64,000 nt of DNA. It comes from a virus (lineage: Duplodnaviria > Heunggongvirae > Uroviricota > Caudoviricetes). The stretch lies in the IMG/VR virus record IMGVR_UViG_3300028888_001839, positions 185,001 through 249,000 of that record; one strand, 5' to 3'. Every line of letters begins with the position of its first letter. Position 1 is the stretch's first letter. A program made the translations under genes and the position numbers. The notes below the pieces were generated by a model. It ran no database searches, had not been told where the DNA came from, and worked only from the letters and a program-made list of their open reading frames with translations. This document shows, piece by piece, positions 3,644 to 17,432 of this stretch.

Positions 3644-3934
3644 TTGTCTATGGCGAATTCGGTACAGATAAAGTACCATGGGGAAGTTCTCTGCTGCCTT
3701 GACCAGACGGAGGTCAAGGCAGTGGAGCCCTATGTGTTCTGCAAGCCTCCTATCAGAAACGTGTTCCAGCGGATAGCCGATTGGACGTATCGGTTTGTGA
3801 CAGGAAAGCGAACAAACGTTATGGTTGGGGATAACGGAAGTTCGTGCGACTCTGGCACGAAAATCCTATTCAAGGACGGTACTTGGATGCGCTTGAAGAT
3901 TCCCTTTATGGAGTTTGTGAATGGCTACTGCTAA
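3644..3934 (+). CDS. hypothetical small protein
   Basis: 96 aa ORF in a co-directional gene string; no recognisable motif. Confidence 0.3.
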   Translation: MSMANSVQIKYHGEVLCCLDQTEVKAVEPYVFCKPPIRNVFQRIADWTYRFVTGKRTNVMVGDNGSSCDSGTKILFKDGTWMRLKIPFMEFVNGYC

Positions 3935-4631
3935 TGAGACAACGCATAAGGAAATCTGGAAATCTCCTCCCTCTCTCAATTGTCAGAGGGTGGAGGTTTC
4001 TAATTTAGGGAGGGTAAGGACACTCCCTTATTATAGGAGTTTCATTCGGCTTGGCGTTCCCGTAACAAATAAGTGTAATGAAAAAATCCTCAAGTGCGGA
4101 AAGGATTCCAGAGGGAGGAGATTCATCTGCGGAGGAACCATAAAGAAGTCTCTATATGGGAAGGGGTTCTTGGTCCATCGGCTAGTAGCCGAATGCTTTG
4201 TTCCAAATCCAAAGCCAAAAGAGTATGACATGGTATTCTTCAAAGATGGGGATGTGGGAAACTGCAAGGCATCAAATCTCGAATGGGGTTGTAGGAGGGA
4301 TAGGAATTTGATGGCAAGGGGCAATCGTGCAATCTATAAGATTCTAGTCATCTCTAACGGGAAAAAGATTGGAGAATATATTGGATGTGGAGAAACAGGT
4401 AGAGCCCTAGGGTGTACAAAACAGTCGGTTCATGCTGCGATAATGAATGGCACTCTATGCAAAGGATATGAACTAGTAGCATTGAAGGGAGATGGAGACA
4501 AGCCATATCATTCGCTCGAAGAGGCAAGAAAAGCTGATAGCTTCAAGCCTATAAGCAATGGGTTCTTGATTCCAGACGAAATATATTCCAAGAAGGATGT
4601 TGAGATACCGATGGAGGCTGTGTTCAAGTGA
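3921..4631 (+). CDS. HNH homing endonuclease (HNH_3-like)
   Basis: 236 aa; NLEWGCRRDRN and HRLVAECFVPNP motifs typical of phage HNH_3 endonucleases. Confidence 0.6.
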   Translation: MATANETTHKEIWKSPPSLNCQRVEVSNLGRVRTLPYYRSFIRLGVPVTNKCNEKILKCGKDSRGRRFICGGTIKKSLYGKGFLVHRLVAECFVPNPKPKEYDMVFFKDGDVGNCKASNLEWGCRRDRNLMARGNRAIYKILVISNGKKIGEYIGCGETGRALGCTKQSVHAAIMNGTLCKGYELVALKGDGDKPYHSLEEARKADSFKPISNGFLIPDEIYSKKDVEIPMEAVFK

Positions 4632-5559: not shown

Positions 5560-7662
5560 ATGTTCGGATTATTCCATAAGGGCAGCAAGAAAGACCAGCC
5601 GAAATACAAGAAGCATGGGAGGTCGGAGGGTGAGCCATCTGCTATCCAGAAGATGAGGAAGGCTATCGAGGACGGCATAGGGTTCTCTCCTGATTCTAGT
5701 TCTGGAGAGTTCCCCGTCATGGATGAATCCGCCATGACAGATGAGGAGTACACTGAGGCAATCGACAAGTTGTTTCCAGTTAGACTTACAGACTTCTTCA
5801 AGGCGGTGCAGGATGGGGCTGACCCATTTCCAATAAAAACCGACATGGTTGATATGAGCGTCCCTACAATGGACGATGTTACTGGAGGCAAGGGAGATGG
5901 TGTGCCAACGGGGAAGCCGTCCGTTCTTCCGAGGAACATAAGCGGGAATCTTCCGGGAGCCGTTCCGAGAAGTTCTCAGAGGTGTTATCCGCCACGGCAG
6001 GGGCTTCATGCTGGGTTAGAGGGTGGCGGATTTGCGATGCTTCCCGATCCTCTTCTACGCTTCCCGATAAACCCAAGAGTTCTCAAACACTTCCAATCGC
6101 GTATTTGGATTACATATACGGGATGCGCAATCATAGCAACACATGAGTTTGTGAATCGTGCCTGCATGATTCCAGCAGAAGATGCCATGGCGCATGGTTA
6201 CAAGGTCGTCTGCTCATCTACAAAGCATGAACATAGCAATGAGCATGATGCAGCGGAAGCAGATTTCCTGACGGAGATTAAGAAAGCCGCCGATAGGATG
6301 GGGTTGAACGAAGCATGTATTCGCTTAAATTACAAGAAGAAGGTGTTTGGAGTTGGTGTAGCAATTCCATGGGTAAGGTTTAGGGATGATTATAGATCCC
6401 CATCAGACAAGTCAGGTAAAACCCCATATAGCTATGCAGACCCTTACGACCCTAAAGCCATAAAACCAGGTTCGTTCAAAGGATTTGCTGTCATAGACCC
6501 ACACTGGCTTACTTACCAGTGGGACAAGGACAGCCGAACCAATCCACTCTCCCCGCACTTCCTAGAGCCGACATGGATAAAGGTAGGAGAAGAGAGAGTC
6601 CATCGCTCATGGGTGATAAGGAAAATAAACTCAGAGTTGCCAGACATCTTCAAGCCGGTGTATCTCTATGGCGGGCTGTCTTTGACGCAGATGATTTATG
6701 AAAGAGTGTGGGCCGCAGACAAGCTAGCAAATGAAGCACCGCTTCTAGCAATGACAAAGAGGCTTCTGATTGCAGACGGAAACCTCGAGCAGTTGCAGTC
6801 AGACCCGGCCCGTACAAACAAGTTCTTCAATGCCATAAACTTCTTCCGCGACAACTTCTCCATATTCGTGAAGAAGCCGTCTTCGAACGTGACGCAGTTG
6901 GATACGAACCTGTCGGAACTCACACCTCTTACGATGTCGCAGTATCAGTTGGTTGCTGCCATTGCACAGATTCCTGTCACTAAGTTGCTGAAAAACGTTC
7001 CTTCTGGCCTGCAGGCAACAGGGCAATACGAATGGGACGACTATGCCCAATCTCTAAAGGCTATCCAGAATAACGACTATACTCCTTTGTGCAAGATGTT
7101 CTACGAACTTTATTGTGCGTCGAACTATCCGGACAAGGATGACATGAAGCTAGACATAGAATGGAATCCTATTGACGTGCCGAAGGAGTCCGAAGTGGCA
7201 CAGATGAGTTCGCAGACGGCACAGTATGTTGCTCACCTTATCAATACCGGACTCATTGACATTGCGGAAGGTCGTGCGATGCTCCGCAAGACAAATCTCC
7301 CAGTTTTCCAGACGATTCCGACAGACATTCCAGAAATCCTCACCAAGATAGAGGAAGCAAAAGACCCTTCAGCCCAACAAGGAGGAATGCCTGGAATGCC
7401 GGGAGGGATGGACGGCGGCATGGGAGGCGGAATCCCTGCTCAGGGAGGAGAACAGCCCCCACCAGAACTGCCGCCAGAAGTCCAGAAGAACGACGAAATT
7501 TTCAAGAGCGTGATGAGGGACTTCCTTAAGAAGACTGGGCAGGAAGTACCAGCACCAGCCGAGCAGCAGCCACAGGCACAGCAGGGGCAACAACCTCAAG
7601 CACATGCCCAGCAGCCCCAACAAGCCCCCTCGGCACAACCACAACCTCCACCTAGAGGGTAG
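5560..7662 (+). CDS. putative portal protein with Q/P/G-rich low-complexity C-terminal tail
   Basis: 700 aa; size and position fit a portal protein; C-terminus is GMPGMPGGMDGG then QQPQ repeats. Family assignment is tentative. Confidence 0.35.
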   Translation: MFGLFHKGSKKDQPKYKKHGRSEGEPSAIQKMRKAIEDGIGFSPDSSSGEFPVMDESAMTDEEYTEAIDKLFPVRLTDFFKAVQDGADPFPIKTDMVDMSVPTMDDVTGGKGDGVPTGKPSVLPRNISGNLPGAVPRSSQRCYPPRQGLHAGLEGGGFAMLPDPLLRFPINPRVLKHFQSRIWITYTGCAIIATHEFVNRACMIPAEDAMAHGYKVVCSSTKHEHSNEHDAAEADFLTEIKKAADRMGLNEACIRLNYKKKVFGVGVAIPWVRFRDDYRSPSDKSGKTPYSYADPYDPKAIKPGSFKGFAVIDPHWLTYQWDKDSRTNPLSPHFLEPTWIKVGEERVHRSWVIRKINSELPDIFKPVYLYGGLSLTQMIYERVWAADKLANEAPLLAMTKRLLIADGNLEQLQSDPARTNKFFNAINFFRDNFSIFVKKPSSNVTQLDTNLSELTPLTMSQYQLVAAIAQIPVTKLLKNVPSGLQATGQYEWDDYAQSLKAIQNNDYTPLCKMFYELYCASNYPDKDDMKLDIEWNPIDVPKESEVAQMSSQTAQYVAHLINTGLIDIAEGRAMLRKTNLPVFQTIPTDIPEILTKIEEAKDPSAQQGGMPGMPGGMDGGMGGGIPAQGGEQPPPELPPEVQKNDEIFKSVMRDFLKKTGQEVPAPAEQQPQAQQGQQPQAHAQQPQQAPSAQPQPPPRG

Positions 7663-7901: not shown

Positions 7902-8645
7902 ATGGATATTGTTTATGTCATAGGAACGGAAAGCAGACATGGCAACCTTGAACTGAGGATGTCTCTCCGGTCCATAGCAATGTATGGAAATAACATCGGG
8001 AAGGTGATTGTTGTAGGTACTCCCCCGAACTGGCTTTCTGATGAAGTCATAAAAGTACCTGTAGCGGATAAGTATGTCTACAAGCACTCTAATATATTGA
8101 TGTGCATCGAGAAAGTGGTTGACCTTGGATTAGTCGATGGTGATTTTCTATATTCCTCGGACGATCATTTCTATTGTAGGTATGTTGATTTCAATAACTA
8201 TCCATATTATCTAAAGGGGCCACTCCGCAAGAGGGTAAACGAACTAGACCCTTTCTACAACTATCACAAGTCACTCTATGACACGAGAATGCTTTGCGAG
8301 AAGCATGGCTTCCCTACTAGAAACTATTCACAGCACTGCAACACTCATATGCATGCAGACGTGATAAGGCGAATAAAGCCCATACTCCGTGAATCCTATG
8401 GACTTCCATTTGGGGTAGAACCTACTTCGATCGTGATGAATGCTTGGCAGACTTTTCCTAATGCTCCCAAGGTTACAAAAAGAGAAGACGTGAAGATACT
8501 TCAAGCGAAGAGCCTAGCGGACATCTGGGAGCAGATTGGCGACAGGGATTGCTTTAGCATAGGTGATTCTGCTTTCTCTGGAAAGGCAATGATGTCATTC
8601 TTCAAGGAAGAATACGGGATCAAGTCAATTTACGAGAACGACTAA
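7902..8645 (+). CDS. Stealth-family (CR2-like) putative sugar phosphotransferase
   Basis: NLELRMSLRSIAMYGNNIGKVIVVGTPPNWL closely resembles the Stealth conserved region 2 signature (ELRYSLRS...P.WL); CR1 is absent. Confidence 0.4.
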   Translation: MDIVYVIGTESRHGNLELRMSLRSIAMYGNNIGKVIVVGTPPNWLSDEVIKVPVADKYVYKHSNILMCIEKVVDLGLVDGDFLYSSDDHFYCRYVDFNNYPYYLKGPLRKRVNELDPFYNYHKSLYDTRMLCEKHGFPTRNYSQHCNTHMHADVIRRIKPILRESYGLPFGVEPTSIVMNAWQTFPNAPKVTKREDVKILQAKSLADIWEQIGDRDCFSIGDSAFSGKAMMSFFKEEYGIKSIYEND

Positions 8646-8673
8646 AAAATCTTTCTTTTTATTCTACCCCCCA

Positions 8674-8702
8674 TTGAAAGCCGTCTGACTCTATGGTATA
8701 CT
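8674..8702 (+). promoter_or_regulatory. sigma70-type promoter with extended -10 (TTGAAA-17-TGgTATACT), copy 1 of a conserved promoter family
   Basis: TTGAAA at 8674-8679, TG-N-TATACT at 8694-8702; the same motif CCATTGAAAGCCG...TGGTATA recurs at 27901 and 35029. Confidence 0.55.
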
Positions 8703-8793
8703 ATACGGCGTTTCGAGGAACAAGGCCCTGAACCTAGATGGGCAAGAAAGAGATTCCTCCTAATGGTTCTTTGACAATTGGACGTTGAATTTC

Positions 8794-8836
8794 GGTAGCC
8801 GCCGAATGGGGTTGGTTCGAGTCCCCACGGCTACCA
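8794..8836 (+). ncRNA. tRNA-like minihelix (acceptor stem + T-arm only)
   Basis: GGTAGCC ... GGGGTTGGTTCGAGTCCCCAC ... GGCTACC-A: perfect 7-bp acceptor-like stem enclosing a TPsiC-like arm, no D or anticodon arm. Confidence 0.4.
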
Positions 8837-9774
8837 CAAGTTTCTGTGGAGCAATCGGCAGAGTAACATCGGCCGTACCACATAAAGACCTTCCTTCTAT
8901 GTCTTTGAGGGAATTTAACCAGGGGCCAAGAATAGTGGCAAAAGACTTCGATTTCCCAATCTTACATAATCAGTTAGGTTGGGGGAGCGGTGTGTGAAGC
9001 GCAGACTGCCAGAAAAAATTAACAACTAATAAAACGTCTGGTCGTGGAGTGCAGTCGGACGATAAACAAAAAGGCGAGGAGGCGATAGCATTTGCTATGT
9101 CAATGAACCGCTAAAGCATACAACATCTAGTTGTAGGGCTACTCACACTCTGGAAAAGAGCCAATCGTACTACCGCTCTATTCTGTTTGCTGCCCGATTC
9201 CTAATCAGTCTAACGGGTAGAGTGGGTGTGAGTCTGCTGGGGAGTAGCCTTCCATGATTGTTAGGCGAATCTTGGCGGAGGAAGCCCACAAGTGTTGTGA
9301 CAAGGTAGCCGTTGCCAAAAACATCTAAACGGCAGTTAGTCATCTAAGGAGGCTGTTGGAAACAAGGCAAGGATGGATGCTGGCTGGAGTGGCAGCCAAT
9401 ATGTTATCGTCTATGCGTCGGTCACATGAGGTAAGACGATAGCCAAGAGGTGTCAGGCATCTCACCATCTCAATTTCAATGGGTCTAAATCGGTTTCGAC
9501 GTGGTGACGGCAGTTGCATATGCAGGACGGTGATGTATCCTACACCGCAACGACGGATGCGAAACTCAAATGCCAACGATTAAGAACAATCTTCTGGGAG
9601 GGGCATCTTCCAGTTGGTGAGGTTCATGTAAGACCAAGAACTCCATAGAGGGGTTAGTGGCATGAACCGCTTGCAGCCAAGAATCCCGACAGCCTTAGCG
9701 TTGGGAGTATGTCAAAAGCAGCAGGAATGAACATTGCACTCTGCGGTGCCTGTTGCTTTCAATTTCAGCGAAGC

Positions 9775-9850
9775 GGGGATGTAGCTCAGATGGCAGAGCG
9801 ATTCCTTTACACGGAATATGTCGGCGGTTCGATTCCGTCCGTCCCTACCA
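9775..9850 (+). tRNA. tRNA-Val (anticodon TAC)
   Basis: Cloverleaf: acceptor GGGGATG/CGTCCCT, D GCTC/GAGC, anticodon stem ATTCC/GGAAT with loop TTTACAC, T-loop TTCGATT, CCA encoded. Confidence 0.8.
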
Positions 9851-9853
9851 GAA

Positions 9854-9931
9854 GAGGCTATAGCTCAATGGACAGAGCGCTACCCTCCGAAGGTAGGTCT
9901 TGTGTGGGTTCGATTCTCACTAGCCTCACCA
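9854..9931 (+). tRNA. tRNA-Arg (anticodon CCG)
   Basis: Acceptor GAGGCTA/TAGCCTC, anticodon stem CTACC/GGTAG with loop CTCCGAA, T-loop TTCGATT, CCA encoded. Confidence 0.75.
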
Positions 9932-9933
9932 AT

Positions 9934-10010
9934 GCGGGTGTAGCTCAATCGGACAGAGCGGCAGTTTCCTAAACTGTAGGTTGCTGGTTCGATCCCAGTC
10001 TCCCGCACCA
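9934..10010 (+). tRNA. tRNA-Arg (anticodon CCT)
   Basis: Acceptor GCGGGTG/CTCCCGC (one mismatch), anticodon stem GCAGT/ACTGT with loop TTCCTAA, T-loop TTCGATC, CCA encoded. Confidence 0.7.
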
Positions 10011-10019
10011 TTTCCAAGA

Positions 10020-10094
10020 GGGGCTATAGCTCAACGGATAGAGCAGTTGCCTTCTAAGCTACTGATGTGGTTTCGATTACCGCTAGCCCCACCA
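10020..10094 (+). tRNA. tRNA-Arg (anticodon TCT)
   Basis: Acceptor GGGGCTA/TAGCCCC, loop CTTCTAA, T-loop TTCGATT, CCA encoded. Confidence 0.7.
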
Positions 10095-10099
10095 ATTTT

Positions 10100-10187
10100 G
10101 CCAAGGTCGCATAGTCTGGCTGATTGCACGGGTTTTGTAAACCCGCTCCGAAAGGACACAGCGGTTCAAATCCGCTCCTTGGCTCCA
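10100..10187 (+). tRNA. type II (long variable arm) tRNA; anticodon ambiguous: TGT in a 7-nt loop, or GTA (Tyr) if the loop is 9 nt
   Basis: Acceptor GCCAAGG/CCTTGGC, 3-bp D stem with long D loop, variable hairpin TCC-GAAA-GGA, T-arm AGCGG/CCGCT, discriminator T, CCA encoded; anticodon arm CGGGT-TTTGTAA-ACCCG. Confidence 0.6.
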
Positions 10188-10195
10188 TGAGACTT

Positions 10196-10270
10196 GCCTC
10201 CGTAGGTGTAATGGCAAACCGCCACTTTCGTAAAGTGGATTTCCTAGTTCGAGTCTAGGCGGGGGCTCCA
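10196..10270 (+). tRNA. tRNA-Thr (anticodon CGT)
   Basis: Acceptor GCCTCCG/CGGGGGC, anticodon stem CCACT/AGTGG with loop TTCGTAA, CCA encoded. Confidence 0.75.
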
Positions 10271-10273
10271 GAT

Positions 10274-10346
10274 GCCCCCTTAGTTCAGTGGTAGAACGCC
10301 ATCTTGGTAAGATGGAGGTCGTCGGTTCGTTTCCGACAGGGGGCTT
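10274..10346 (+). tRNA. tRNA-Thr (anticodon GGT)
   Basis: Acceptor GCCCCCT/AGGGGGC, anticodon stem CCATC/GATGG with loop TTGGTAA, T-loop TTCGTTT; CCA not encoded. Confidence 0.75.
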
Positions 10347-10349
10347 TAA

Positions 10350-10436
10350 GCGGAGTGTAGACCGTAGCCTGGTACCGGGTCTGCTTTGGGAGCAGATGAG
10401 AAATCCTCGGGGGTTCGAATCCCTCCACTCCGACCA
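10350..10436 (+). tRNA. tRNA-like, type-II-like with variable hairpin; anticodon loop TTTGGGA (TGG?) and irregular D-arm
   Basis: Acceptor CGGAGTG/CACTCCG, T-arm GGGGG-TTCGAAT-CCCTC, CCA encoded, variable hairpin GAG-AAATC-CTC; D region does not fold canonically. Confidence 0.45.
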
Positions 10437-10441
10437 TTTTC

Positions 10442-10518
10442 GGACCCTTAGCTCAATTGGTTAGAGCATCTGGCCCATACCCAGACGGTTGTAGGATCGT
10501 TCCCTACAGGGTCCACCA
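10442..10518 (+). tRNA. tRNA with CAT anticodon (Met/fMet/Ile2), unusual C33
   Basis: Perfect acceptor GGACCCT/AGGGTCC, D GCTC/GAGC, anticodon stem TCTGG/CCAGA with loop CCCATAC (C at position 33), CCA encoded. Confidence 0.7.
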
Positions 10519-10531
10519 AAACGATTTCAAT

Positions 10532-10605
10532 GGGCCGATAGTTCAACGGTAGAATGCTTCTCCGGCAGAGAAGAGATGCAGGTTCAATTTCTGCCGTGTC
10601 CACCA
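10532..10605 (+). tRNA. tRNA-like, possibly Ala (GGC); acceptor stem has 3 mismatches, possible pseudogene
   Basis: D and T arms fold (T-arm GCAGG-TTCAATT-TCTGC), anticodon arm CTTCT-CCGGCAG-AGAAG, but acceptor GGGCCGA versus CGTGTCC pairs at only 4 of 7 positions. Confidence 0.4.
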
Positions 10606-10748
10606 TTTCCAGGGCGGTTGTGACAAAATCAGTGTTTATCATTTCCCAATTCCAATGATTTCGTTGGGGTGAATAATTGGGGAAAGAAAGCGTGATGGGC
10701 ATTAATGGAAATACGATGTCCTTCTTGACAATCGTCCTTTATTTTCAT

Positions 10749-10823
10749 GGGCCGGTAGCACAACAGTAGTGCAACTCCTTTGCAAGGAGTAGGTTGTCCG
10801 TGCGAATCGGATTCGGTCCACCA
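10749..10823 (+). tRNA. tRNA-Ala (anticodon TGC)
   Basis: Acceptor GGGCCGG/TCGGTCC (two G-U pairs), anticodon stem ACTCC/GGAGT with loop TTTGCAA, T-loop TGCGAAT, CCA encoded. Confidence 0.7.
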
Positions 10824-10831
10824 ATTTTAAT

Positions 10832-10910
10832 GAGGCATGTAGCTTAAGATTAATGAGCGGGCGGTGATGAGCCGCCTATGTGTCGGTGCGAATCCGTCCA
10901 TGCTTCACCA
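10832..10910 (+). tRNA. tRNA with non-canonical anticodon loop TGATGAG (no U33; GAT/Ile-like or ATG) and a 3-nt acceptor-D connector
   Basis: Acceptor GAGGCAT/ATGCTTC, anticodon stem GGCGG/CCGCC, T-loop TGCGAAT, CCA encoded. Confidence 0.5.
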
Positions 10911-10918
10911 ATTTTATC

Positions 10919-10992
10919 GCACTGATGATGTAGCGGTAACATAAGGGCTTCCCAAGCCTTTCTCACGGGTTCGAGTCCCGTTCAGTGCTCCA
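10919..10992 (+). tRNA. tRNA-Gly (anticodon CCC)
   Basis: Acceptor GCACTGA/TCAGTGC, D ATGT/ACAT, anticodon loop TTCCCAA, T-arm ACGGG-TTCGAGT-CCCGT, CCA encoded. Confidence 0.75.
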
Positions 10993-11083
10993 TTTAGAAG
11001 CCTCTCCGCCAGAGTCCCGATCTGTCGGTCTGTATAAGGGAACGAGGTAGCCCCCGCTGAAAGCAGTAGGATAAGGGGCAAAT

Positions 11084-11159
11084 GCGGACTTAGTACAGTT
11101 GGTAGTACGTATCCTTGCCAAGGATGAGGTCACGGGTTCGAGTCCCGTAGTTCGCTCCA
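11084..11159 (+). tRNA. tRNA-Gly (anticodon GCC)
   Basis: Acceptor GCGGACT/AGTTCGC, D GTAC/GTAC, anticodon stem TATCC/GGATG with loop TTGCCAA, T-arm ACGGG-TTCGAGT-CCCGT, CCA encoded. Confidence 0.8.
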
Positions 11160-11163
11160 TTTT

Positions 11164-11238
11164 GCAAGATTGGCAGAGAAGTTATGCGCCACCCTTCCAA
11201 GGTGGTTTACGCCGATGCGAGTTCGGCATCTTGCTCCA
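11164..11238 (+). tRNA. tRNA-Gly (anticodon TCC)
   Basis: Acceptor GCAAGAT/ATCTTGC, anticodon stem CCACC/GGTGG with loop CTTCCAA, T-arm GCCGA-TGCGAGT-TCGGC, CCA encoded. Confidence 0.7.
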
Positions 11239-11495
11239 TCTTGAAAAGCGTCCCGAATGCGTCGGCCCAGAAGTACAATGGGTGCAAGGGCTCGCAAGCA
11301 ACGGCAGAAGATTCGGGTGCTCGTTCCGCATAGGACGTGAAGGTCCACCCAAGAAGGGGCGAACTCGGTTGCAAGTGTTATCAAGTTCTGCAACAACGGA
11401 TAGGCGAGAATCTGACTTGCAGGCGCAAGTGCAACCCAAAGGTTCGGTGAGGCGCAACACGGGAAAGGGCGCATGTGATTTTTTAGTGGCATACG
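11239..11495 (+). ncRNA. GC-rich ~250-nt structured element after the tRNA array, ending in a U-tract; candidate small RNA
   Basis: Roughly 55% GC versus ~45% for the window; no credible ORF; ends ...GGGCGCATGTGATTTTTTAG. Confidence 0.3.
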
Positions 11496-11599
11496 AGGTT
11501 CCTATTCAATAACTTGTTTGGGTATAAGTCAAATACCTCCCGCCACTTCTCCATTTGTGAGACATAGAGAGTTCCTATTCAATCGATCATACGACGAAG

Positions 11600-11619
11600 C
11601 ACGGGGCAACAACCCTGTG
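11600..11619 (+). other. acceptor-like hairpin CACGGGG-CAACAA-CCCTGTG inside a repeat unit
   Basis: 7-bp stem with one G-U pair, 6-nt loop; same architecture as the junctions of the permuted tRNA-like elements. Confidence 0.3.
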
Positions 11620-11677
11620 TAGTTTCTACTCTCCGTCTCATTTCCCTTTCAGGGGCAGAGGAAGTTCCTATTGATTT

Positions 11678-11753
11678 GAGAAGCTAGCTCAATGGAAGAG
11701 CGCCTTGGAGGAATCCAAGGAGATTACGGGTTCGAGTCCCGTGCCTTTCACCA
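11678..11753 (+). tRNA. tRNA-like gene with full cloverleaf but non-canonical 6/8-nt anticodon loop (CCTTGG-AGGAAT-CCAAGG)
   Basis: Acceptor GAGAAGC/GCCTTTC (one mismatch), D GCTC-AATGGAA-GAGC, T-arm ACGGG-TTCGAGT-CCCGT, CCA encoded; no U33. Confidence 0.45.
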
Positions 11754-11802
11754 ATACTTTCCGCCCCGCTTTTTTGCGGCACAGAATGTTCCTATAAAAA
11801 TG

Positions 11803-11880
11803 CTTGGTAAGCAGGAGGTCGTGGGTTCAAATCCCACTGCGGAGGGCTTGCACCTCCGTATAGCTCAGTCTGGTAGAGCG
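11803..11880 (+). ncRNA. Permuted/split tRNA-like element: 3' half (anticodon loop 3' side TTGGTAA, T-arm GTGGG-TTCAAAT-CCCAC, acceptor 3' strand) then linker then 5' half (acceptor 5' strand + D-arm TAGCTCAGTCTGGTAGAGC)
   Basis: 3' strand TGCGGAGG is complementary to the downstream CCTCCGTA with one G-U pair, forming an acceptor hairpin closed by a GCTTGCA loop. Confidence 0.45.
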
Positions 11881-12057
11881 CCTAAATAATACATTCCGCC
11901 GCTTTTCCAATTTCAATGTGGCAAAAGACGTTCCTATTACTTTGGTTGGTCTTCTATCCTCCAAAGGGATGGAAGATGGGGTTCAAATCCCCGTTAATAC
12001 GTCTCGCCACTGATTCTTCAGAGGCATATTGAGTTCCTATAAAAAGACACGCAGAGT

Positions 12058-12120
12058 GATTGGGTTCGACTCCCAACGACGGGGCAAAACCCGTTGTAGC
12101 TCAACGGTAGAGCATTTGCC
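12058..12120 (+). ncRNA. Second permuted/split tRNA-like element: T-arm TTGGG-TTCGACT-CCCAA + acceptor 3' CGACGGG, linker GCAAAA, acceptor 5' CCCGTTG + D-arm TAGCTCAACGGTAGAGC
   Basis: 7/7 complementarity (one G-U) between the 3' acceptor strand and the downstream 5' acceptor strand; canonical D-arm follows. Confidence 0.45.
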
Positions 12121-12549
12121 TTACAATACTCATCGCCTCACATTTTTCTGGAGCATTGGAAGTTCCTATTAGCATCTGCGGATGCAATTGACTGTAAATC
12201 AATCCAAATACTTCCCGCTCCTTTCCCTTTTCAGGTTGCATAATGGAGTTCCTATCAAACCCTTGGACCTGGGGACAATCAGGTCCACCATGAAAAATCG
12301 TACTCCCCGCAACCATAACAAAACAAAGTCGCATAGGCGGTTCCTATAATGGCGAAAGCCAACTTGCTGATAACGAGAAAATACTGCCCGCGACAAACTC
12401 TTGACCGCATATGGGGTTCCTATTACGCTTTCTCCACATTTCGGAGGATTCTCCACCTTTCGGGGAATCTAGCAATACCCTTCGCGGAACTTTTCCGTCC
12501 GTGTGGACGGTCTAAACGACAACAAAAACCAACCAAAGGGAAAACGACA

Positions 12550-14436: not shown

Positions 14437-14450
14437 GGTGACAAAGTTTT

Positions 14451-14528
14451 GCATACAGGGGTGGTAGGTTCCACCGGCCGAGAGGTTGTGCGACGGCACT
14501 TGATTGGGTTCGATTCCCAACGTATGCA
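14451..14528 (+). tRNA. tRNA-like element; canonical T-arm and 6-bp acceptor, non-canonical core
   Basis: GCATACA ... TTGGG-TTCGATT-CCCAA CGTATGC-A; interior has a GGTGG-TAGGTT-CCACC hairpin, a GGCCGAGAGG motif and a GTGC-GACG-GCAC hairpin. Confidence 0.35.
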
Positions 14529-16930
14529 ATTTCATTGTGAATCGACCGAGGCGAAAAAGTCCTCCTCGGAGTAAACTCAGGCTGCGAAGGGTGTTCCGTC
14601 TGTCTTACGGAATGTCGGTGATTGGGAGTCCGTGTTCACAAAGAATCCCATGAGGCAAGAGTTGGTGAAGAGCAGAGTAGCTAATGCGAAAATCTTCATT
14701 GACATAGACTTATTTACTTTGCTAGGTCGTTCCCCTCGACCTCCAATGGCAAATGGGAAAATATGGGGACAACTCAGTTCAGAAGAACCTCCTAAGTCAG
14801 CACACAGGATTGGGAAACCATAAAAGATGCTGATAGCCAAAGGGTAGCCTTGAAAGGCGAAATCATGCGACCCCAAAAGAGGCCACTGTCACTGTCTTTG
14901 ACTGTGAGTAGCAGTACCGAGGCATCGGGAAAATACGGCTGCTAAAGCTCTCCGCAAGAGGGATAGACTTAACAATTTCTTCTGTGCGTAAATTCAACAG
15001 TCAGAATCCCCGCCGATTCCATTTTCGTATGAAGATGCGATAAGCGAGGAGTTGCTGGTGCGAATCCAGCCGCACAGACCATTTCCTTCCGTGCAGAGAG
15101 GGAGTAAAACCTTGACGGCTAGACAATCGAATGACGAGTCTTTTGTGGACAGAACGGGATGATGTCATGACTGACCCTCGTTTCAGTTCGGTTTGAGTTT
15201 CAACGACCAAGGCCGTCCCGAAACAATCAATGTGATAATCTAGGAGAGAGCGCACTTCTAGGAATAGACTGGGGAAGTCCTCGTAGCTATTGGACAGCCC
15301 TGAAACATGGCACCTGTCAGTAGTCCAGTCGGATGCACGGAAGATTTGATGATTTCCGCTCATGAGCACAATTGGCGAACTTCCTTTCCTCTGTCAGCGC
15401 AGTAGGAGGATAAGAGCCTACGATAAGCATGTAAATCGAACAGTAACCCGATTTAGAGCGGGGGCAACCTTCGCATGCGGCGGTCATTGCAAATGTCACG
15501 GCAATAAGGGAGAAGGAAGAGCTCAAATCCTTTCCCCAGTGGCCCTATTTCCGCTATGGCATTTTTTGCTATGGCAACCAATGAAGAGAAAAGCGACCTC
15601 GAGTTGTATCTTGCTGACGAACCGTATATGCCTGACTTGGCTGAAGAAGACTATACTGCTGCCGCAGTCGTGAAGCCTGCAAGTTTTAGCAATGTCAATG
15701 TAACGGAAGAAATGTTCAAAAGCAAAGTAGATGAGGCATTCCGAAAGAGGATGGCTAAGACCTTATCTCCCAAGGCGATTGAGGAATGCATATTAAGTCC
15801 AGTATATGCAAGATGCATACAGAACAAGTTCAAGGAAGTGCAGAATGACAACAACAATCTTTCCCTGTCGCAGGAGAAGGTATTGAGGGGACATATCGCT
15901 TCGTTGATGCACTGTCTCTTTTTGGTGTTTAGTTGATTTAGATTGCGGGCTGGTGTAAAAGCAGCATAATAGGCTCATACCCTTTAGGAAGCCGTGCGAT
16001 TCGGTTGCCCGCTACCAATTTTCGCTAGGATGCGGAGAGAAAAACTCCCAGTCTACACAACTCTACTCTGGTGCTGCAGAGGTTAGGCAGACTAGCGAAA
16101 TCATTTTCCGCCAAGTGAGCGATGGACTATGGAAGATTAAGGTATCGGCCCTTAACTCACTAGTTGAGTCCCGTGTGTCGGTCTGACTAATTGACGTGAA
16201 GCAAGATTCTTGGCGGACACTTTTTCGATGGAGTCCACATGGTTGTGTCATAGGTTGATGGCGATGTTGGCGGAAAAGCCGCTCCTGACGGTTGGGGAAT
16301 GCCTCCTAACGAAACAGCCCCGACCCGAAAAAAGCATACCTTGGAGAGCACGGCAGGCGGTCGAGTATCTTCTGTAACACAAGAAGGGTTAACTTAGTTC
16401 CGTCCGCGAAAGTAAATCCAGTAGTCATCGCATAGAGGTGGGGAAAACACTTTCCGTTGACCTTCGTAGTCCCAGTCCGATTCTGGGAGGACTCCGCAAT
16501 TTAGGAAGGGTCCATGCCTAATGTGCTGAACGACAAAATCGCTCCCGAGAATGTGGAGATGAGAGTAATCAATCGGGCATTTCGCTCCGTATAGAGAGCG
16601 GCTTCCTAATGTGCGAAAGCACAAAACTCTAGTGTTCTTTGCGGGGTTCCGACCTACCCCTCTTCCAGAGGGTTGAGTGTCGGGTTGAGCGAGCTAGAGG
16701 CGGTATTCGGCAAAAAACACTAGCCGACCCTGTCATAGGATGCGGAGGTAGGGGGAGCTCACCCGAAACCGAATCGGCAGCCCCGCTCCATTTCTCTTTC
16801 CATTCATCGGTGCAAACGTTTGAGTTGGTGGATACATATGACAATTCCTTTTCGGAGACGGGTGATTGGTTTTAGGCTTGCTATTGTCTAATTGCACCTA
16901 CGGCGGCCGATTCAATTTATAGGCGGAGAT

Positions 16931-16968
16931 GTGGGTTCGAGCCCCACCATGCTACCCGAAAGGGTAGC
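16931..16968 (+). other. T-arm-like motif GTGGG-TTCGAGC-CCCAC followed by GCTACCC-GAAA-GGGTAGC hairpin
   Basis: Perfect 7-bp stem with GAAA tetraloop; resembles the GGTAGCC/T-arm minihelix at 8794. Lies ~70 bp upstream of a strong promoter. Confidence 0.3.
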
Positions 16969-17034
16969 CTCGTCTAATAGGAAGGATACCGCCTCCCATC
17001 TAAAAAATTCAACGTCCAATTGTTGTCACCCCCC

Positions 17035-17064
17035 TTTACAGCCATGCCAATTCTGTGGTATAAT
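17035..17064 (+). promoter_or_regulatory. sigma70-type promoter TTTACA-18-TGgTATAAT
   Basis: TTTACA 17035-17040, TATAAT 17059-17064 with upstream TG. Confidence 0.5.
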
Positions 17065-17096
17065 TTTCTTTGCTTTCGGACAGGAAGGACAAGACG

Positions 17097-17432
17097 ATGC
17101 AACGAACGAAAAAGACAGCAAAGCCTATATCCCAAAAGGCATATCCATGGCGGAAGAACAAGAAGAAATGGACTGACACTCTCTTTGAAAGCAAGCTTCT
17201 TTCCAATCCATCTTTGATGACTAATGCAGAACTTGCAAAGGCATTAGAAGAGCATCAGGAGTGGCGAAGAGGGGAAGGTAAATACTTCTGGAAAGATGAC
17301 CCCATAAAGGAGAAATCAGAGACTGATGCTCCATTCTCTCCCGCTATCCTATCCAATCTGATTATGGAGACGATTGCTCGTCTTAAGATTGGCGGAGACT
17401 TGGCAATGGGGAGATTCAAGGATCATGTTTGA
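17097..17432 (+). CDS. hypothetical small basic protein
   Basis: ORF 17070-17432; the first ATG with an RBS (GGAAGGA) is at 17097. Confidence 0.4.
   Translation: MQRTKKTAKPISQKAYPWRKNKKKWTDTLFESKLLSNPSLMTNAELAKALEEHQEWRRGEGKYFWKDDPIKEKSETDAPFSPAILSNLIMETIARLKIGGDLAMGRFKDHV

Follow-up and report, generated by a model that had tools for sequence, protein, structure and literature searches.

Introduction

Nus complexes that assemble in a boxA-dependent manner render RNA polymerase Rho-resistant on untranslated rRNA. Long CRISPR arrays, likewise untranslated, are also shielded from Rho by a boxA (Stringer et al., 2020; PMC7665894), and phage-encoded transfer-messenger RNA (tmRNA) is known from huge phages (Al-Shayeb et al., 2020; PMC7162821). 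We have analysed positions 8650–9774 of a 64 000 nt stretch of viral DNA (IMG/VR record IMGVR_UViG_3300028888_001839; the whole stretch is referred to below as the window), a region that separates a gene for a 247-aa protein from an array of tRNA genes in a jumbo phage. This region carries a 16-mer identical to the boxA found in bacterial rRNA operon (rrn) spacers and, a short and nearly constant distance further on, a minihelix resembling the acceptor stem and T-arm of a tRNA. We propose, at a probability of roughly 0.6, that it represents the 5' part of a phage stable-RNA operon with boxA antitermination and tRNA-like processing, and not a simple leader.

Of the described systems, the rrn operons share with this locus an identical boxA 16-mer placed early in a long, untranslated and structured transcript behind a strong promoter; the phage copy differs in heading a tRNA/tmRNA operon and not rRNA genes, and in being accompanied by no boxC, RNase III stem or rRNA. 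As in the CRISPR arrays (PMC7665894), the element follows a promoter and precedes a long series of short RNAs that are untranslated and processed, the phage array consisting instead of viral tRNAs, tmRNA and other structured RNAs. With regard to the tmRNAs of huge phages (PMC7162821), four relatives of the window (contigs L074, L076, L077 and L079; genomes and contigs compared here are denoted by L numbers) carry the complete gene, whereas the window has just its first 102 nt. Nus-dependent antitermination, with the phage boxA serving an untranslated tRNA/tmRNA operon, would follow naturally from these likenesses. While boxA antitermination, phage tmRNAs, tRNA-like processing signals and the ends of IS605 elements are all known already, three features appear to be new: phage tRNA/tmRNA operons headed by a boxA of the rrn type, the constant combination of boxA with a minihelix, and three covarying modules that belong to no RNA family. 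The literature searched yielded no report that connects boxA with phage tRNA arrays.

Results

A promoter, a boxA and a minihelix in fixed order

The comparison set included twelve contigs that encode homologs of the portal-like protein of the window (L071–L082), all 12 of which share the order portal gene, small open reading frame (ORF), 247-aa gene, non-coding stretch and tRNA array. The elements at the head of the non-coding stretch, and the gene that ends it, are the following.

8674–8702, + strand: sigma-70-type promoter with an extended -10, TTGAAA-17-TGgTATACT (motif score, conservation in relatives)
8766–8781, + strand: boxA-like element GTTCTTTGACAATTGG, 16 nt (consensus match, identity to bacterial rrn spacer boxA)
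8794–8836, + strand: acceptor/T-arm-like minihelix and the A that follows it (fold, covariation in 11 phages)
9775–9850, + strand: tRNA-Val(UAC), first gene of an array of 14 or more tRNAs (ARAGORN, Rfam)

The promoter (TTGAAA at 8674–8679, a 17-nt spacer and TGgTATACT at 8694–8702) has a motif score of 10/12, to which the TG extension is added, and no other strong sigma-70-like site lies on the + strand between 7800 and 12500. Equivalents of the form TTGACA/TTTACA-17-TGnTATAAT/TATACT, their position unchanged, are present in 11 related contigs. Both the coordinates and the type given for this promoter in a preliminary description of the DNA have been upheld. Transcription would be expected to start near 8709 and probably drives the tRNA array. 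A second promoter beginning with the TTGACA inside the boxA was considered and rejected, there being no -10 element at 16–18 nt and no flag from the promoter scan.

The boxA lies approximately 65 nt past the -10 and is followed by a conserved spacer, GUUGA(A)UUU, at 8782–8793, the minihelix beginning 12 nt past the boxA. The preliminary description missed this element, the most conserved of the leader, although it stands immediately upstream of the minihelix that the description did report. In 11 phages the order is fixed as promoter, about 65 nt, TCTTTGACAATTGG, 10–12 nt and minihelix, and the boxA core is the near-invariant and best-conserved block of the 5' leader, the approximately 60 nt upstream of it being unalignable. 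For the boxA, RNAalifold predicts just 5 bp with no covariation, and between the start site and the boxA it gives no conserved boxB-like hairpin, individual phages having hairpins of their own in this unalignable part. The sequence GTTCTTTGACA agrees at 10 of 11 positions with the boxA consensus GYTCTTTAANA, which is gamma-proteobacterial (PMC5725501). The element is on the sense strand downstream of the promoter and ahead of more than 3.5 kb without ORFs, and the exact 16-mer occurs once in the window. Relatives that have no minihelix retain a boxA between promoter and first tRNA, exact in L070 and L005 and with one mismatch (TTCTTTGAAAA) in L082.

A scan for the 16-mer in one genome per bacterial species found it at 120 loci or more, several of which were placed with Rfam and ARAGORN. 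Among the matches listed, the identical 16-mer stands in the 16S–23S spacer, after the spacer tRNAs and 65–200 nt before the 23S rRNA, in L112 and L122 (both Bacteroidota) and L115 (Nitrospinota), where the 23S rRNA was confirmed by Rfam, and on motif-level evidence in L133 and L188; no start of a 16S rRNA was found within 1.2–1.5 kb downstream of the genomic matches. In at least nine bacterial genomes (L088, L089, L109, L154, L158, L161, L184, L186 and L202) it abuts the 5' end of a tmRNA gene and overlaps the first two nt of the tmRNA (tmRNA start at +14); those checked are Planctomycetota metagenome-assembled genomes (MAGs) and one Deltaproteobacteria MAG. IMG/VR contains 64 occurrences, and in three further contigs, which lie outside the loci reached via flanking proteins, the 16-mer precedes stable-RNA genes: tRNA arrays in L027 (414 kb) and L048, and in L057 (467 kb) a tmRNA gene that it abuts. 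Because of the consensus match and of its occurrences in rrn spacers, beside tmRNA genes and before tRNA arrays, we identify the motif at 8766–8781 as an rrn-type boxA. The adjacency of boxA and tmRNA in several bacterial phyla hints at a link between Nus factors and tmRNA expression, of which the literature searched held no description. As a separate observation, a Terriglobales MAG (L097, 3961–5016) has a dense array of 13 or more tRNA genes, two of which flank the boxA 16-mer.

Non-coding character of the region

From the stop codon that ends the 247-aa gene (8645) up to tRNA-Val (9775), ORFs reach 77–79 codons at most, which bears out the absence of credible ORFs reported in the preliminary description, and recoding of stops does not help. 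That the region nevertheless encodes one small protein or several, or a protein concealed by an alternative genetic code, we consider hardly credible. Such a reading could draw on the unusual tRNAs of the array, for example one with a 4-nt anticodon at 11678–11753, and on a conserved AAGGAGG motif at 9341–9347. However, there are 14–20 stops in each of the six frames, recoding of any single stop yields 152 codons at most, the adjoining genes read normally in code 11, candidate starts after AAGGAGG are 26 nt off or unconserved, and substitutions are patterned as in paired RNA. The hidden ORF was accordingly rejected, the AAGGAGG motif having no conserved start codon with it.

Structure and possible role of the minihelix

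The minihelix consists of an 8-bp outer stem (8794–8801 with 8828–8835), a 5' bulge CCGAA and a 5-bp inner stem (8807–8811 with 8823–8827) that closes an 11-nt T-loop-like loop, UUGGUUCGAGU, with A8836 after it. It is slightly better than had been described. The minimum free energy is -22.6 kcal/mol (z = -3.27; 1 of 200 shuffles as stable). Aligned over 11 phages, the minihelix has 93% of its cells paired, against 37–55% with slid partners, and both sides have changed in 6 of 12 pairs, as where GGUAGCC/GGCUACC becomes GGCGGCU/AGCCGCC and UGGGG/CCCCA becomes UGAGA/UCUCA. The minihelix therefore exceeds what chance would give, and the lack of conservation in relatives that the preliminary description had named as speaking against the element was not found. 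Covariation backs both stems, and the 13 bp can be stacked, with a 3' strand (CCCCACGGCUACC) that runs uninterrupted as in the acceptor/T-arm of a tRNA and a loop that holds the T-loop motif GGUUCGAGUCC; an acceptor/T-arm would comprise about 12 coaxially stackable bp and a T-loop-like loop. While the stems covary, sequence conservation is seen in the bulge, GCCGAAU, and in parts of the loop, which measures 7–13 nt across relatives.

A complete tRNA cloverleaf was not found here: the 43 nt hold acceptor-like and T-like stems only, and neither ARAGORN nor the Rfam tRNA model (RF00005) made a call. Rfam was run on the whole window at the gathering threshold and at E ≤ 10 on 8500–12500, on 8640–9780 and on 9072–9775 of L077. 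An Rfam scan had been suggested in the preliminary description. It recovered the tRNAs, but it assigned the minihelix to no known family: apart from the sub-threshold YrlA match given below, these scans return only tRNAs and a single sub-threshold resemblance of the minihelix, to mascRNA-menRNA (RF01684; 20.6 bits, the gathering score being 42.5; E 0.17–0.9). The mascRNA at the 3' end of MALAT1 is, like the minihelix, an acceptor stem plus T-arm within a long non-coding transcript. It differs in being eukaryotic, in having an anticodon-like arm, and in that it is a tRNA-like processing element for RNase P and RNase Z, whereas cleavage of the minihelix is only predicted.

The preliminary description had put forward a substrate of RNase P/RNase Z or a tRNA-like decoy, both of them plausible in principle. 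The number of stackable base pairs (13), the uninterrupted 3' strand, the T-loop motif, the position at the head of the array and the resemblance to mascRNA only are the reasons why, within the overall model, we favour for the minihelix the specific role of an RNase P-type processing signal, albeit tentatively and at rather less than an even chance. A different role would follow from its neighbour. The nut (N utilization) site of phage lambda is likewise a phage-borne boxA with a conserved hairpin at a short fixed distance, and boxA and minihelix might together form a nut-like bipartite site in which the hairpin is the boxB analogue for an antiterminator of the phage (N-like) or of the host. 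The constant arrangement of boxA, 10–12-nt spacer and hairpin in 11 phages agrees with this, as do covarying stems combined with a sequence-conserved bulge and loop parts, a pattern expected of a protein-binding hairpin. We nonetheless consider it improbable. The lambda nut site has a weaker boxA variant and a 5-bp stem with a GNRA-like pentaloop, whereas the window has an rrn-type boxA and a 13-bp hairpin with a 5-nt bulge and a T-loop-like loop that varies from 7 to 13 nt; L070, L082 and L005 carry the boxA or a near-exact variant of it without the hairpin; bacterial boxA elements beside tmRNA and 23S rRNA work without such a hairpin; and no N-like protein was identified, no search aimed at one having been made.

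An acceptor/T-arm geometry that is conserved with covariation, in a region packed with tRNA-like pieces (permuted or YrlA-like ones at 11803–11885, 12055–12113 and 16900–16990), might alternatively be that of a decoy or mimic titrating a host factor, such as a toxin that modifies acceptor ends, the CCA-adding enzyme, EF-Tu or an anti-phage nuclease. This seems to us very unlikely, as the element encodes no CCA and has no aminoacylation identity element (its 3:70 pair is U-A or C-G, not G-U), its T-loop is degenerate in three relatives, and its accumulation is only hypothetical.

Covarying RNA modules downstream of the minihelix

The non-coding stretch continues, up to tRNA-Val, with a series of structured segments.

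8845–8882, + strand: hairpin with a UG...CA stem, then UAAAG (position conserved, sequence variable; by eye in the window, L002, L076, L077 and L079)
8922–9013, + strand: 5' half of the B1-C domain, with a GCCA/UGGC hairpin, a UAAUCAG-loop hairpin and the 5' strand GAGCGGUGUGUG of a long-range helix (RNAalifold)
9147–9296, + strand: 3' half of the B1-C domain, with the 3' strand CGUACUACCGCUC of the long-range helix, a second UAAUCAG-loop hairpin and a closing helix around a (G)UGAUUG-loop hairpin (RNAalifold)
9297–9467, + strand: module D, ending in a 7-bp hairpin and ACCA (RNAalifold on 4 phages, 45 pairs, 12 compensatory)
9468–9480, + strand: spacer UCUCAAUUUCAAU of the type found in the tRNA array (resembles the inter-tRNA spacer at 10514–10534)
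9592–9717, + strand: module F, about 125 nt, with a hairpin, a UUGG/CCAA helix and AGCCAAGAAUCCC...GGGAGUAUGYCA (RNAalifold, homologs)
9718–9774, + strand: spacer before tRNA-Val with a small hairpin (conserved with L077 and L074; 97.6% identity to L077 10266–10349)

In the hairpin at 8845–8882 the stems differ in sequence between phages with complementarity kept, as judged by eye. The B1-C domain, of approximately 245 nt, has the most extensive fold: for seven phages, RNAalifold gives 10 helices with 61 pairs in all, one of the helices being long-range and 12 bp in length, and 20 of the pairs show compensatory changes. Pairing extends to 96.6% of cells, compared with 37–44% in slid controls, and none of 500 shuffles equals the observed values. 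The 3' half is highly conserved in six to seven phages, and the UGAUU loop motif is retained in L077 despite a different stem sequence. The (G)UGAUUG loop is complementary to both UAAUCAG loops, and kissing-loop folding or self-assembly, as in other large phage-associated RNAs, is possible.

GOLLD and ROOL are large, covariation-supported, multi-helix non-coding RNAs whose function is not known and which are located beside phage tRNA genes. The B1-C domain is similarly multi-helix, covarying and adjacent to tRNAs; it is smaller than these RNAs and matches neither model, as neither GOLLD (RF01998) nor ROOL (RF03087), nor any other Rfam family for B1-C, was found in the three scans at E ≤ 10.

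In module D, the terminal ACCA is followed by a UUUCAAU motif, as between tRNAs; the module is absent from L001, L072, L076 and L079. For module F, RNAalifold gives 26 pairs, six of them compensatory (z = -3.24), and homologs occur within tRNA arrays (L079 11990–12109, L080 11257–11372) and upstream of tRNA-Asn in L005. In the window this module occupies the place of the 3' part of the tmRNA gene. The numbers of homologs are small for some of the modules, at four to seven sequences. The idea in the preliminary description that the leader may encode an additional structured RNA is borne out by three modules with compensatory base changes and by the full tmRNA gene of relatives. It is possible, at a likelihood that comes near to an even chance but falls short of it, that the B1-C domain, perhaps with modules D and F, represents an undescribed class of structured phage RNA that serves translation takeover or RNA processing in its own right and is co-expressed with the tRNAs and tmRNA from a boxA-protected operon; any function of the domain is, at this stage, presumed.

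A truncated tmRNA gene and a transposon end

Two further segments were identified through homology, both of them overlooked in the preliminary description.

9014–9146, + strand: remnant, 133 nt, of the right end of a TnpB element of the IS200/IS605 family of insertion sequences (IS), covering the scaffold region of the right-end element RNA (reRNA, or omega-RNA) (BLAST and collinearity by eye)
9481–9582, + strand: 5' fragment of a tmRNA gene, nt 1–102 (near-identity to the L077 tmRNA)

The tmRNA fragment retains the 5' acceptor strand GGGUCUA, GGUUUCGAC, the PK1 region, the resume region AAAUGCCAACGAU and GCC AAC GAT TAA (‘AND-stop’). It tracks the L077 gene up to GCCAACGATTA and then diverges, giving a tag frame of three codons, Ala-Asn-Asp-stop; what it lacks is the 3' 293 nt, with pseudoknots 2–4, the T-arm, the 3' acceptor strand and CCA. 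At the same locus a complete, one-piece tmRNA gene is present in L074 (9854–10247), L076 (9427–9821), L077 (9760–10154) and L079 (9636–10029), as found by ARAGORN and by Rfam (RF00023, 96–115 bits). The tags of these tmRNAs read ANDEVEYKAAA, ANDNVEWKAAA and ANDYVDYKAAA, and their acceptor stems keep G3:U70. We note in passing that the tags end in KAAA and not in the usual ...ALAA, which could alter recognition by ClpXP-type proteases.

Neither ARAGORN nor Rfam made a tmRNA call in the window, and neither a tmRNA 3' domain nor a strand complementary to GGGUCUA with NCCA was found in its 64 kb. A two-piece, permuted or split tmRNA was considered and rejected: the 3' domain, the GGGUCUA partner with NCCA and all T-loop-like motifs were searched for in the window, and none fits. 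IMG/VR as a whole lacks a 23-mer that is conserved in the 3' domain of the tmRNA, and therefore the 223-kb close relative of the window has no intact copy of the tmRNA gene. Because homology ends at 9582 and the window has no 3' domain or partner strand, we class 9481–9582 as a dead gene fragment and not a tmRNA; as read from its sequence, it cannot be charged.

The transposon remnant sits in the loop of the hairpin CCAGAG-UGAU-ACUCUGG of the B1-C domain. It is present only in the window and L072 and is absent from L001, L074, L077 and L079. It is collinear with the last approximately 60 nt of tnpB and the right end of an element in L075; the significant BLAST match covers 9036–9084 (88% to L075 1648–1696), the terminal hairpin through the ...CTCAC boundary having been aligned by eye. 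A tblastn search with the L075 TnpB found nothing in the window, and the remnant has no tnpB or iscB gene, no left part of the element and no GTGAT target motif, which is present in the empty site of L001. Compared with a complete IS200/IS605 TnpB right end or HEARO RNA, the window thus shares the collinearity of the tnpB 3' end and the right end and differs in having neither nuclease gene nor left part, and we classify 9014–9146, from its sequence, as a remnant or an orphan guide-RNA scaffold. In L073 a HEARO RNA (RF02033, 106 bits; 9481–9729) lies approximately 14 nt downstream of the CCAGAG stem, and this hairpin appears to be a recurrent landing site. TnpB genes are found elsewhere in L071, L075 and L082.

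The locus is a hotspot for mobile elements, for which endonuclease insertions count as further evidence. Genes for endonucleases (PDDEXK, HNH) are situated inside the tRNA arrays of L073 (11380–12309), L074 (11324–12391) and L076 (10780–11634), and the window has an HNH/NUMOD4 ORF at 3921–4631.

Conserved core and optional modules

The genes that adjoin the region encode a portal-like protein (5560–7662) and the 247-aa protein, which is Stealth_CR2-like (7902–8645); both are 97–99% identical to their counterparts on the 223-kb IMG/VR contig (L001/L003). The portal protein has 415 homologs at E ≤ 1e-50, many of them on contigs of 130–300 kb and one labelled as a Prevotella sp. MAG. Kinship to isolates is distant only, with 35% identity to Pbunavirus-type minor head proteins, and blastn against INPHARED found no similar DNA among known phages. 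A pattern search of IMG/VR with the core of module C returned only a contig already known, and a metagenome scan for further homologs one short locus.

Module content varies between near-identical genomes: L001, the closest relative, lacks 9014–9146 and all of 9297–9770. The region is therefore not the single leader of the preliminary description but a mosaic of modules gained and lost between close relatives, and, because L001 does without those parts, promoter, boxA, minihelix and B1-C can be taken from the comparison as the conserved core and the remaining modules as optional.

This variability bears on whether the stretch is mostly evolutionary debris, that is, a functionless spacer between promoter and array made up of decayed tRNA and tmRNA genes and transposon scars. 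The truncated tmRNA and the TnpB-less IS end clearly are debris, module content differs between near-identical genomes, and, as boxA abuts tmRNA in some bacteria and one phage, the minihelix could be the tRNA-like domain of a tmRNA, internally deleted. Against this, compensatory changes keep the minihelix, B1-C, D and F across phages whose flanking proteins are only 60–80% identical, and neutral sequence would not hold pairing at 93–97%. We consequently view debris as an unlikely account of the region as a whole, and retain that of a stable-RNA operon.

Other tRNA-like elements and unusual tRNAs nearby

Several observations concern the DNA downstream. Three modules, at 11803–11885, 12055–12113 and 16900–16990, have the form of a permuted tRNA, in the order partial anticodon stem, T-arm, loop-closed acceptor stem and D-arm. 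This is the topology of the bacterial Y-RNA-like YrlA, and Rfam gives YrlA 37 bits (E 1e-5) at 11813–11885, the gathering score being 69. The preliminary description had pointed to an element at 16931–16968 for comparison with the minihelix; with its T-arm followed by a loop-closed acceptor hairpin, it turned out to be permuted and not a second copy of the minihelix, and it belongs with the YrlA-like type and not with that at 8794. The non-coding DNA at 11478–12424 after the tRNA array (and 4300–4650 of L002) contains 8–10 irregular copies of GGCAnA-N4-5-GTTCCTAT(A/T), which could be phage-specific promoters or processing sites.

Within the array, the tRNA at 11678–11753 (ARAGORN) has an 8-nt anticodon loop with the 4-base anticodon GGAA; its conservation extends to L071, L072 and L077, and it might be of the frameshift-suppressor type. 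A tRNA-His at 10832–10910 (ARAGORN) has the unusual anticodon ATG (A34), occurs in L073 as well and is not listed by Rfam at the gathering threshold. A second, mostly non-coding island of approximately 2.9 kb (14437–17373) includes T-arm-like pieces at 14501–14522, 15051–15086 and 15992–16022, and at its end a promoter, CCCCTTTACA-17-TGGTATAAT (17032–17063), that resembles the one at 8674.

Discussion

Our working model for the region is as follows. A conserved sigma-70-type promoter would start a long untranslated transcript in which the boxA, about 65 nt in, would recruit host NusB/NusE(S10)-NusA-NusG(-SuhB) to RNA polymerase. The Nus-modified polymerase would then resist Rho-dependent termination over the leader and a tRNA array of more than 2.5 kb, and would cross upwards of 3.7 kb of RNA that is not translated. 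The minihelix may serve as the first signal for tRNA-like processing, with RNase P cutting on its 5' side and an activity that trims 3' ends acting past it, which would detach the boxA leader from the RNAs downstream. Further processing sites of tRNA type would be offered by the tRNAs themselves, by the tmRNA in genomes that have it and by the hairpin and ACCA that close module D; cleavage at all of these would release B1-C, module D (hairpin-ACCA), module F and, in relatives, the intact tmRNA from the tRNA precursor.

A number of points weigh against this model. The promoter, the antitermination and the processing steps, including RNase P cleavage in the leader, are all inferred from the DNA. 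In composition the leader has much G and little C (GC skew +0.09 to +0.20), which is not what Rho prefers, so that the need for antitermination may lie further downstream or be modest. No CCA is encoded after the minihelix, where ACAAG follows, whereas the real tRNAs of the array do encode CCA; position -1 is C and not the U favoured by Escherichia coli RNase P; and the degenerate T-loop in L073, L074 and L075 weakens a strict view of the element as a tRNA mimic. By analogy with lambda, a hairpin straight after a boxA would suit a nut-like site of boxA plus boxB equally well. Finally, modules D, tmRNA and F are dispensable, being missing from L001 and L072.

Such operons prove to be plastic when close relatives are compared, with the decay of a tmRNA gene and, in separate lineages, the entry of elements of the IS605 type into the same hairpin or DNA beside it. 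At least three covariation-supported modules without an Rfam family are candidates for new phage non-coding RNAs. Host prediction may also profit from the phage copy, since variants of boxA differ from phylum to phylum. How the untranslated stable-RNA operons of huge phages escape Rho is a question to which a boxA behind the promoter, present in 11 relatives and in three further contigs, two of them larger than 400 kb, offers a concrete candidate answer. If the model is true, the boxA logic of rRNA operons and CRISPR arrays would extend to viral tRNA/tmRNA operons, and huge phages may routinely borrow the rRNA antitermination signal of their hosts for tRNA/tmRNA arrays.

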